A stretch of DNA of 64,000 bases, from IMG/VR virus record IMGVR_UViG_3300021167_000382, positions 128,001 through 192,000 of that record; one strand, given 5' to 3'. The notes beneath the pieces were generated by a model that was not told where the DNA came from, did no database searches, and saw only the letters and a program-made list of their open reading frames with translations. Shown here piece after piece: positions 42,228 through 45,375 of this stretch (the first letter of the stretch is position 1; the number at the start of each line of letters is the position of its first letter). The position numbers were made by a program, and so were the translations under genes. The DNA comes from a virus (taxonomy: Duplodnaviria; Caudoviricetes).

Positions 42228-42869
42228 TTAACCGCCGATATTTCCATTGAAAATATCAGTAGGATCGATCTTCGCCGCTAGTGCTGAATCGATAATATCC
42301 CAAACGCTCAGGATCGTGAACTTCTCCTCATCATTCAAGAGTCGATCGCCGGCATGGAGATCTTCCAAGTAGTGCGAGATAACGAGTCGATCTTCACCTG
42401 TCGCTGGGTCAGCTTCAGTTCGAATTACATGTTCCATGACACGCCGGTAGTCGTAGTGGTCTTCACCCACGGCATCAGGTTGGAAATCCGTGTAGGTATC
42501 GCTATAACCATCACAGAGCTGCCGATGGTAGAGTTCACGAAGCGATGGCTGCGCCATGATGTAACGCTGCATGATGGGTTTCGCTGATTGCACCTGATCG
42601 ATCGTATTCAGTGACACGATTGCGTTCGGGTGTAGCAGCGATTTTACTGTACGAGCGATCTTTCGAGCAGAACGTTCGATAGTGCCATCATTATAGACCG
42701 CATGAAGCTCAGTCGCACGATTCAAGAAACCCCGTCCAACATCCGTCAAGATGCCAGTTGCTGCTTGGAGTTGATTAGAGATCCATTCCCGAGCATGTGG
42801 AGCAATCTCAGGAAAGGACATCATCGTCATAGCGCCAGGGTGGGATGGTGGTAAGACGTTGACTTGCAC
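42228..42869 (-). CDS. Conserved core protein (phiKZ gp59-like by synteny)
   Basis: MQRYIMAQP..R.LY....DGYSDTY...GEDHYDYRRVM...DPT motif; directly downstream of the beta' N-part gene. Confidence 0.6.
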   Translation of the reverse strand: MQVNVLPPSHPGAMTMMSFPEIAPHAREWISNQLQAATGILTDVGRGFLNRATELHAVYNDGTIERSARKIARTVKSLLHPNAIVSLNTIDQVQSAKPIMQRYIMAQPSLRELYHRQLCDGYSDTYTDFQPDAVGEDHYDYRRVMEHVIRTEADPATGEDRLVISHYLEDLHAGDRLLNDEEKFTILSVWDIIDSALAAKIDPTDIFNGNIGG

Positions 42870-42875
42870 AGGGGA

Positions 42876-45375
42876 TTAACCTCCTTGATGGGTGGCTTGA
42901 GCTGCATCCCGACGACTACGCCGCAACCATTCAGAGGTTGAAGCGATCACACTGTCCGTCATCGAGGCATTTTTCGAGAGTTCCAATGGTTTATCGAGCA
43001 ACAGCAAGTTGAAATGAGGGCGGAATGGGTAATACAGATCTTCCATGAAATGGTCCATGGCTGGCATGAAATTAACTTCGTCTACTAGTTACGTGGACTA
43101 TATCTTAGCAAGCATAGCTCGCTCCCCCCGTTTCGGAACAGTGTCTCTCGACAGTAATCCCTACTCTACTCGGTTCGTCTCCCGACGCCTTTCGATAGTC
43201 TCTGAACGTTCACCAGTTAAGGCGCTTCGCTGCTGATTGTACCTGACTCTCGATTTTCAAGCATATCGCGCTCACCGTTTCCAGTCACGCTGTAGCTCAA
43301 GAGCTTCATGGGTAGTTTCCAGCAATTAGAGGGGTTTAACGACGGCAACGTTATTTCTTTCTACCGTCATAGTCCTTATTGTCCAACTAAGTCGCCTATT
43401 AGTCTTAGTTCGGTGTGCGTCGACACCCGCACGACATCTCTGCCGTGAACAGATCATATCTTCACCTTCACCCGTGGTGGTAAGGTGCTTCCTTTTTCTT
43501 CCCCTCAGTGGCTTAGGGGTTCTACTCTACTCGGTTCGTCTCCCGACGCCTTTCAATGATCGTTGAACGTTCACCCTCCCGGGTGCTTCGCTGCGGGTTA
43601 TCTAAACTCAACTTCTTTTACCATACCCAGTTAGTTAAGCTGGCCGCGCACCACTTTCGTTTATGCGTTTGGTGTGTTGAGTAATAAAGACTTTCCCGTC
43701 AATTAAGGAAGATTCACTCTGATTTTTTCAAACCAGGTGGCCTGAGGTATCCCCAGCATTCATGGAAGTTGCGATAAGATCCGAAATTGAGACTGTAGTG
43801 TCAAGAGGGTTAGTCTTGAACTTGGTAATTCGCACTGTCTCAGCCGAACCTTGCATCAGAGATGGCTTTTGTCCATTCAGTTCGCTAGACTGAACCGGTA
43901 CGCTAGGTACCTGCTATAGCTTTCACTATAGAACAGACTATATCTTAACCTTCACCCTTGGTGGTCAGGTTCTCCCGTTCACCGCGCTTGCGGTACCTAG
44001 TCGTTGAGCACACACCTTACCCTCTCGGGCTATAGGCGCTTCGCTGCGGATTTCCCAATACACGTCTCTTTTACCATACCTGAGTGATTAGTTCAGCCGC
44101 ATAGTCTCTTTCGAGCGTATGCTTGGTGTACGTGTCTCTAAGGGGGTCCCCGTCAGTTAGAGAGATTTTACAGTAGTATTTCTACTACAGGCAACCGAGT
44201 TGATTGCGTTGGATGGTACTGATGATCGCACCATGACGACTACCCTTGATCAGATCCTGCATCATGGCATCCAGCTTCGGATGATATTTCCCAACATGAT
44301 CCATGAGGAAGTTGGTTGCTTCACCATGGGTCATACCGCCATGAGGATGATCTCGTCGGAGTAGAACGGCCATATGGTGCTGCCACCAGACTGTAACCCC
44401 AACACCCCAAGGCACATGGATCTCGTCATACTCATGAATCCCGTCATGCGAGGTGATCACCGCTCGGAAGCTATAGTTACCTCGTGTCCCATACACATGC
44501 TTCCGATACGTCCCAGTCTTGGGGCGAAGGTTGGTAGCGATGTAGTTTTCGTAGTAATCACACAACATCAGCAGAATCTTAGCAGTCCGATTCTCAATAA
44601 CAGTCGGGGTCTTGTCATGATAGTCGGTGTCAATGCTCAGCATCGTGTTCATGATGTTGTGCATGTCCAGTACGTGGGATTCTACGAAACGACCCAGGTC
44701 ATTGGCTTCCACCACCAACAGCGCACGATTGATCAGTGGTAGATAGTTGCAGAAGATGAGATGCCGGTGCGTCTGGACAAAGTATTCCAGTGGGTCAGTG
44801 TCTGGCGGCACACCGACCATATCCCGAGTTGTCTTGTGCAGATGGCTCTTGGTCACGAACTCCCCAGACCGGATGAGGTAGGAGAAGATCTCGTCAAACT
44901 GCCGAATGAAGTTATTCAAACCACGTGGGAGGCCGTCCGAGATCATCTTCGTTAAGATCGCTGGCCGTGCTTGCGGCACATAGCTTCGATCAATCAGCCA
45001 GCGGATGATGTTGCAACCCTTCTTACTGAAACGATGTTGAAGCATGATCAGTACATGCGGAACGATCAACGCATCAACACCCATCGGCTTACGGAACCAG
45101 AGCATGGACTTGATATCATCTTTGATGGATTGTTCCACAGGGGTCTTACAGGATTCACACAGCATACCCACATACTGCTCGCCACGGAGTTCACCGCAGC
45201 GACACTTCGGCATCATGGTGACCATATCCGCGGTATGTGTCTCCTTGATCAGCCAGTTAAAATATTCACGATCCCTTTCTGTTCTATTTGGAAGATCGTT
45301 GATGATGATGACTTCGTTCGGCGGAAGCGTTTCGAAATCCCTATTGTAGTTGACAAGTTCTTGAAAAACCGGCAC
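42876..45375 (-). CDS. rpoC: Non-virion RNA polymerase beta' subunit, N-terminal catalytic part (phiKZ gp55/56.1-like); spliced from 4 exons: 45375-44203, 43865-43755, 43374-43363, 43082-42876 (500 aa)
   Basis: CRCG..CESC zinc finger, K.G.YRKHVYGTR..FRAVI; joined exons restore QRN|PSLMQGS and MNA|DYDG|DEVN (NADxDGD). Confidence 0.9.
43083..43362 (-). ncRNA. Group I intron 3 (280 nt, no ORF; apparent terminal A)
   Basis: P1 exon GACGGU / intron GCCGUC; P AAUUGCUGGAAA, Q AAUCAGCAGC, R UCAGAGACUA, S AAGAUAUAGUC. Confidence 0.88.
43375..43754 (-). ncRNA. Group I intron 2 (380 nt, no ORF)
   Basis: Follows exon U, ends in G; P AAUUGACGGGAAA, Q AACCCGCAGC, R UCAACGAUCA, S AAGAUAUGAUC (compensatory P7 change). 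Confidence 0.9.
43866..44202 (-). ncRNA. Group I intron 1 (337 nt, no ORF)
   Basis: P1 exon GCAAU / intron GUUGC; ends in G; P AACUGACGGGGA, Q AAUCCGCAGC, R UCAACGACUA, S AAGAUAUAGUC. Confidence 0.92.

Follow-up and report, generated by a model that had tools for sequence, protein, structure and literature searches.

An optional group I intron with a terminal adenosine in a jumbo-phage RNA polymerase gene

Overview

The DNA analysed here (the window, 64,000 nucleotides long) covers positions 128,001–192,000 of IMG/VR virus record IMGVR_UViG_3300021167_000382, a 210-kb record with terminal repeats. Its minus-strand gene at 42876–45375 codes for a phiKZ gp55-type N-terminal beta' subunit of the non-virion RNA polymerase (nvRNAP) and is interrupted by three group I introns without an open reading frame (ORF), as detected with cmscan and Rfam model RF00028. 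Comparison of the third intron with its relatives confirms that its terminal nucleotide, omega, reads A instead of the near-universal G. We propose that intron 3 is probably a working group I ribozyme of a jumbo-phage lineage, in which the 3' splice site would be set by two short helices, P9.0 and P10. The segments that define the junctions of this intron are the following.

43363..43374, minus strand: 12-nt micro-exon 3, GAC TAT GAC GGT (DYDG); relatives without intron 2 (L005, L030 and L031) read SMNADYDG unbroken
43083..43362, minus strand: intron 3, ORF-less, 280 nt, last base A43083; boundaries from the intron-less relative L008, cmscan 44.8 bits
42876..43082, minus strand: exon 4, DEVNFMPAMDHF... 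to the stop, with GACG at 43082–43079 as the exon strand of P10; from the joined product and the P10 register

Boundaries of intron 3

The minus strand reads CGTAACTAGTA|GACGAAGTTAAT from 43093 to 43071, with A at 43083 and G at 43082, such that the intron end is ...CACGUAACUAGUA and exon 4 starts with GACGAAGUU. On the other side, the 5' exon ...GAC TAT GAC GGT ends at 43363 and A43362 is the first base of the intron, which thus separates GGT from GAC in the catalytic DYDG|D motif. In the related locus L008, which is about 72% identical in exon 1 and contains intron 2 but not intron 3, the sequence is ...GATGGT GACGAAGTT, in other words GACTACGATGGT GACGAAGTTAAT are contiguous. As L008 defines the inserted segment, intron 3 ends with A43083 and exon 4 begins with G43082. 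Both boundaries are exact to the base, because shifting the two ends together by +1 or -1 alters the product. A second relative, L027, also lacks the intron and has an unbroken DFDGDE; its absence from these two loci makes intron 3 optional.

Only removal of 43083–43362 yields DYDG-DEVN, and its alignment to NADFDGDQLNF of Burkholderia phage FLC9 gp381 needs no gaps. Splicing after G43082 results in a frameshifted exon 4 with a stop after 40 codons, and the frame argument of the initial annotation, that only a cut after A43083 keeps the gene open, is therefore upheld. The RF00028 consensus ends in G, and cmscan aligns this terminal G to G43082, while the last base of the intron is A43083 (likewise A in L005 and L030). 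Automatic annotation with a covariance model would consequently misplace the 3' end by one base in the downstream direction, and the polymerase gene would wrongly seem frameshifted.

Moving both splice sites one base downstream (GGUA| ... UAG|) is arithmetically in frame and would retain omega-G, with DYDGNEVN as the product. This solution loses the U.G wobble at the 5' splice site, breaks P10 and replaces the third aspartate of DxDGD, a residue shared by all examined homologues, so that we assign this solution a negligible probability.

The terminal adenosine in independent assemblies

The initial annotation had allowed for two explanations of the terminal A, a genuine non-canonical site or a single G missing from the assembly (true end ...TAGTAG|GAC), and the window does stem from a metagenome-derived virus record. 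The same end, CTAGTA|GAC, is found in L005 (ENA ERZ650241), a locus with a different intron set that is 98% identical to the window in exon 1. L030, a 212-kb Logan contig from SRR28219347, is 83% identical in exon 1 and 89.2% identical in the intron. Here the intron ends in CACAUAACUCGUA|GAC (CTCGTA|GAC), again an A followed by a single G, and two other positions of the tail are substituted. A third relative, L031 (SRR15669520), carries a 94.6% identical intron with the normal omega-G end ...CAUUAG|GAC and was assembled normally, which indicates that a GG junction, where one exists, is assembled correctly. The junction between intron 3 and exon 4 contains no homopolymer. Since the omega-A end recurs in two further independent assemblies, one of them with an 89%-identical intron, and the three assemblies come from different archives, a missing G is effectively excluded by these comparisons, and a sequencing or assembly artefact is very improbable.

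Selection on exon 4

A comparison of two omega-A copies, the window and L030, over the initial 55 codons of exon 4 gives 21 codons with synonymous changes and 1 with a non-synonymous change, when read in the frame that depends on a cut after A43083. The alternative frame, which follows from splicing after G43082, contains stops in both copies. The ratio of 21 to 1 indicates strong purifying selection on exon 4 in the required frame between the omega-A lineages, and exon 4 has thus been translated in the correct frame while the two copies diverged. We infer that ligation after A43083 takes place in vivo.

Structure of the ribozyme core

The functional segments within intron 3 are:

43341..43350, minus strand: internal guide, consisting of CGUU (43350–43347, P10 strand) and GCCGUC (43346–43341, P1 strand); from sequence and homologue pairing
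43196..43202, minus strand: 5' strand of P7, GAGACUA, with G43200 equivalent to Tetrahymena G264, A43201 as the bulge and G43202 paired with C43095; cmscan alignment
43095..43100, minus strand: 3' strand of P7, UAGUCC, with C43096 equivalent to C311; cmscan alignment
43083..43094, minus strand: 12-nt 3' tail, ACGUAACUAGUA, in which A43094-C43093 and G43085-U43084 form a possible P9.0/P7 extension and A43083 is omega; from sequence

Intron 3 has neither P2 nor P9 but contains P7.1 and P7.2, and we describe it as IA2-like by this P7.1/P7.2 insertion only, which is not a formal classification. A local search with RF00028 gives it 44.8 bits (E 1e-9), where the gathering score is 50. The homologous introns of Serratia phage 2050HW and Aeromonas phage D3 pass with 58 and 88 bits, and the L005 copy has 46.0 bits. 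The shortfall of intron 3 is due to the missing P2 and P9 and to a misfitted P1; the core itself is not missing. The cmscan alignment shows the conserved core P3–P8, including the P7 G-C pair beside the bulged nucleotide, and RNAalifold recovers P3, P4–P6, P7.1, P7.2 and P8. P7 is formed by GACUA (43200–43196) and UAGUC (43100–43096) with a canonical G-C at the G-binding position, and the cmscan alignment thus bears out what the initial annotation had noticed.

A consensus fold of five copies by RNAalifold contains 83 pairs, of which 18 show compensatory changes on both sides. Covariation is seen in P1, P3, P4–P6, P7.1, P7.2 and P8, and P7 gives no such signal because it is invariant. In the 6-bp hairpin P8, a C-G pair becomes U-A in L031 and a G.U pair becomes A-U in L030. 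The 63-nt insertion that cmscan places between P7 and the 3' strand of P3 folds as two helices (alignment columns 247–272 and 281–307). This region also resembles the corresponding part of intron 2: a 73-nt block over P7.1/P7.2 (43522–43594 in intron 2 and 43158–43230 in intron 3, minus strand) is 84% identical between them, with an identical GGCGUCGGGAGACGAACCGAGUAGAGUAG inside, and is conserved in L018 and L025 as well.

Some variation touches neither the core nor the 3' end. A P2 hairpin of about 20–27 nt is present in L005 (4893–4920), L030 and L018, where the window (43338–43341) and L031 have GUU, and this indel is independent of the omega state. In addition, GACUAU of the 5' exon (43369–43374) is identical to the 5' strand of P7 and can pair with the 3' strand of P7 (AUAGUC, 43095–43100). 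RNAalifold selected this pairing, which could be a competing fold of the precursor or a coincidence.

Helices at the splice sites

P1 pairs GACGGU of the micro-exon (43368–43363) with GCCGUC of the guide and comprises 6 bp including the U.G wobble at the 5' splice site. All six positions pair in each of eight homologous introns, and a C-G to U-A compensation is observed. Directly adjoining P1, the 4-bp helix P10 is formed by exon GACG (43082–43079) and guide CGUU. In this register, three to six contiguous pairs form in all eight introns; shifting it by +1 leaves one pair and by -1 two. The third exon position (C or U) covaries with the guide (G or A) across the eight introns. The register that the initial annotation had read from the guide, with G43082 as the first base of the exon, is thereby recovered.

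P9.0 is defined by the pairing of the two bases just after P7 with the two bases just before the terminal nucleotide (PMC10020454). With A43083 as omega, AC and GU form such a helix of 2 bp; both pairs are lost if G43082 is taken as the last base. The four bases are conserved in L030, whose tail differs at two loop positions. P9.0 alone carries little weight, as it consists of two base pairs and is absent in several omega-G homologues. The P10 and P9.0 registers both set A43083 as the omega position.

Homologous introns at the same site

Introns at the DxDG|D site are found in Serratia phage 2050HW, Aeromonas phage D3 and the metagenomic loci L018, L025 and L031, and all five end in G; omega-A is limited to the window/L005 and L030 copies. 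The homologues share with intron 3 the insertion site, P1 (GAYGGU/GCYRUC), the P10 register and the P7.1/P7.2 core, and the metagenomic copies are 63–95% identical to it. L025, 2050HW and D3 possess a P9 hairpin or longer 3' extensions, whereas the window, L005 and L030 have the 12-nt tail and end in A.

The G-binding pair of P7 is the same in the omega-A copies and in the five omega-G homologues, and J6/7, both strands of P7 and J8/7 do not vary between omega-A and omega-G copies. Apart from the tail, only two bases of the P4–P6 region and one compensated pair of P8 distinguish the omega-A copies from L031. Remodelling of the pocket does not explain the A, as the pair G43200-C43096 (equivalent to G264-C311) is unchanged. 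In both exon and intron, the window has a higher identity to L031 than to L030. Either omega-A would be ancestral to the window, L030 and L031, with L031 having regained a G and a rearranged tail, or the tail would have moved between lineages. In both scenarios omega-A has lasted through about 11% of intron divergence.

The zero-substitution stretch shared by the window and L005 runs from 42750 to 43337 and takes in the part of intron 3 that follows the P2 site, exon 4 and the beginning of the gene behind it. In exon 1, the two loci differ at 26 of about 1200 positions, 24 of them synonymous. This pattern suggests a recent gene conversion, or homing of the ORF-less intron together with flanking exon sequence.

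Intron occupancy is mosaic over a stretch of about 150 nt of beta' coding sequence (window 43083–44202; L005, L008, L017, L025, L027, L030 and L031), in which at least four insertion sites (QRN|P, DLIA|T, NA|D and DG|D) are filled in differing combinations. HNH endonuclease ORFs lie in introns of the relatives (L005 3488–4513, L030/L031 5697–6545 and L025 3975–4982) and in none of the three introns of the window. A pattern scan of metagenomes added two distant introns from AT-rich phages that are likewise inserted at DxDG|D; one of them contains an ORF. A search with exon 1 for related loci among viral contigs gave no relative, and pattern scans of viral contigs returned the Serratia 2050HW record as the only genuine match, the remaining hits being due to chance. 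The pattern scan of genome contigs gave no match, and blastn against GenBank phages matched the intron core only.

Proposed mechanism and alternatives

In the model that we favour, the first step of splicing would be ordinary, with an attack by exogenous G behind the U of the wobble pair in P1 (GACGGU/GCCGUC). Two short helices, and not the identity of the omega base, would then fix the 3' splice site in the second step. P9.0 (A43094-C43093 with G43085-U43084), directly beside P7, and P10 (exon GACG with guide CGUU), contiguous with P1, would both put A43083 in the usual place of omega-G and make G43082 the first base of the exon. Together they could hold the A-G junction in the active site despite the poor fit of A in the G pocket, and the ligated mRNA would then carry the GAC codon of the third catalytic aspartate (DYDGD). 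In terms of DNA sequence and evolution, three assemblies, two diverged lineages, the selection on exon 4 and the P9.0/P10 registers lend good support to a genuine omega-A site, the first of the two explanations in the initial annotation.

Several observations count against this model. P9.0 has two base pairs and is not formed in several omega-G homologues. No difference separates the window from L005 in some 590 nt surrounding the intron, so that the two form a single evolutionary lineage and the omega-A lineages number two, window/L005 and L030. The omega-G sister L031 has the same G-binding pair and an entirely identical catalytic core, and no compensation for the A is visible. In model introns, changing omega-G to A severely impairs exon ligation. 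Finally, a G sits directly downstream of A43083, a possible cryptic 3' site that would shift the frame, and it is on this G that cmscan puts the consensus terminus.

If G43082 were docked as omega-G, the mRNA would lose one base and the N-terminal beta' subunit would be frameshifted after DYDG, giving a dead allele or traces of correct product. The unchanged G-binding pocket, the cmscan placement and the view of omega-G as essential for the second step are in line with this. However, in that register P10 has one pair and P9.0 none, the codon lost is that of a catalytic aspartate in an essential enzyme, omega-A persists across the 11% intron divergence, and the purifying selection on exon 4 between the two omega-A lineages acts in the other frame. 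Use of G43082 as the terminal base is accordingly quite unlikely.

It is also possible that intron 3 ends in A without being able to splice by itself, a phage or host protein or coupling to translation replacing the omega-G contact, in line with the dependence on host factors that has been suggested for other obligatory introns. The core holds no RNA change that compensates for the A, and the omega-A intron ND5-717 of hexacoral mitochondria is treated together with obligatory introns that depend on host factors (PMC3679873). Intron 3 and its immediate surroundings contain no maturase-like or other ORF, though, and the 95%-identical sister L031 combines omega-G with the same core, which argues for an RNA of the ordinary self-splicing type. 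We consider such a cofactor unlikely.

With P9.0 and P10 as the determinants of the 3' site, exon ligation is probably slower or less accurate in intron 3 than in its omega-G sisters, as the G-binding pocket has not been remodelled, and less functional mRNA might result if G43082 were used in competition, with a shift of the frame. The suggestion of the initial annotation that the site slows or gates nvRNAP production is speculative. A more far-reaching reading, which we put forward tentatively and hold to be rather doubtful, is that P9.0 and P10 alone permit accurate ligation with a terminal A in an unaltered G-C pocket, and that the intron acts as an attenuator that sets the amount of active beta'/nvRNAP. 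Correct and frameshifting 3' sites would then compete, because the G sits one base downstream, and the omega-G of L031 would represent the unattenuated state.

Comparison with known introns

The second step of group I splicing is regarded as requiring omega-G, and the accepted natural exception is ND5-717 of corals and anemones. As the initial annotation had noted, this hexacoral mitochondrial intron has omega-A, and its exons are nevertheless perfectly ligated in vivo (PMC6545197, PMC8146996). The terminal A is the only feature that it shares with intron 3. A huge intron of organelles, ND5-717 is obligatory and passed on by strictly vertical inheritance; it has a giant gene-bearing P8 insertion, undergoes back-splicing, is presumed to depend on host factors and is hard to study in vitro. 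Intron 3, in contrast, is 280 nt long, ORF-less and optional, has a 6-bp P8 and close omega-G sisters at the same site; of the combination of omega-A, obligatory vertical inheritance and a gene in P8, it has omega-A. Its size, short exon context and a natural omega-G sister with the same core make it a readily testable system for the choice of a 3' site without a terminal guanosine. Searches of open-access text turned up no phage or bacterial group I intron reported to end in a base other than G.

The phage IA2 introns of T4 (td, nrdB and sunY) and of Twort (orf142) have small P7.1/P7.2 cores, reside at conserved sites of essential genes and choose their 3' site by means of P9.0, P10 and omega-G. 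They end in omega-G, intron 3 in A. The host gene family is shared with the RNA polymerase introns of the phiKZ family (phiKZ gp55/gp56 and PhiPA3 gp210), which carry homing endonucleases, unlike the ORF-less intron 3. The gp55 entry of PDB 7OGP joins PHIKZ055 and PHIKZ056.1, introns have been predicted in phiKZ gp56, gp72 and gp179 (PMC10914365), and a PhiPA3 intron endonuclease mediates competition between phages (PMC11620839). No report of a non-G terminus was found for the introns of RNA polymerase genes in this family.

A Tetrahymena ribozyme with an engineered A-U pair at the G-binding site reportedly accepts omega-A, in work attributed to Been and Perrotta (1991) and Michel et al. (1989). 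Both RNAs have a terminal A, but the pocket of the mutant was changed from G-C to A-U whereas that of intron 3 is still G-C (G43200-C43096).

Exon layout of the host gene

The remaining segments of the gene are:

44203..45375, minus strand: exon 1 of the N-terminal nvRNAP beta' gene, phiKZ gp55 homologue by matches to PDB 7OGP and phrog_2987
43866..44202, minus strand: intron 1, at QRN|PSL, ends ...ACAAAAG (omega-G); cmscan 62.4 bits, junction from L008 and FLC9
43755..43865, minus strand: exon 2, PSLMQGSAETVRITKF...SMNA; joined product compared with homologues
43375..43754, minus strand: intron 2, between AAT GCT and GAC TAT, ends ...AAUAAG (omega-G); cmscan 51.8 bits, junction from L005, L030 and L031

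Exon 1 matches chain A of PDB 7OGP (PHIKZ055) with an E value of 4.5e-39 and phrog_2987 with 2.5e-91. FLC9 gp381, an intron-less homologue, reads MQRNPSLERGSAQ...GLNADFDGDQLNFTP, and the joins 44203|43865, 43755|43374 and 43363|43082 give IQRNPSLMQGSAE...SMNADYDGDEVNFMP, which aligns to it without gaps, so that exon 3 is a micro-exon of 12 nt. A different exon 3 starting at 43429, with the 5' site after GGACAAT and omega-G at 43082 (...GQ|YEVN), was rejected: its product has no DxDGD motif and it is contradicted by L005, L030, L031 and L008.

The DYDG micro-exon is flanked by two group I introns and is both the 3' exon for intron 2 and the P1 strand for intron 3. Its skipping would remove most of the catalytic motif; engineered tandem group I introns are said to be able to skip exons.

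In cmscan, the Rfam model stops introns 1 and 2 at 43914 and 43430, about 50 nt short of their splice sites at 43866 and 43375. Both have extra 3' hairpins and similar ends (GGACAAAAG and GGACAAUAAG). A fourth group I intron, with an RF00028 score of 83.4 bits, is located outside the window in the same phage genome (locus L013, G000:C1:61131-61439, plus strand).

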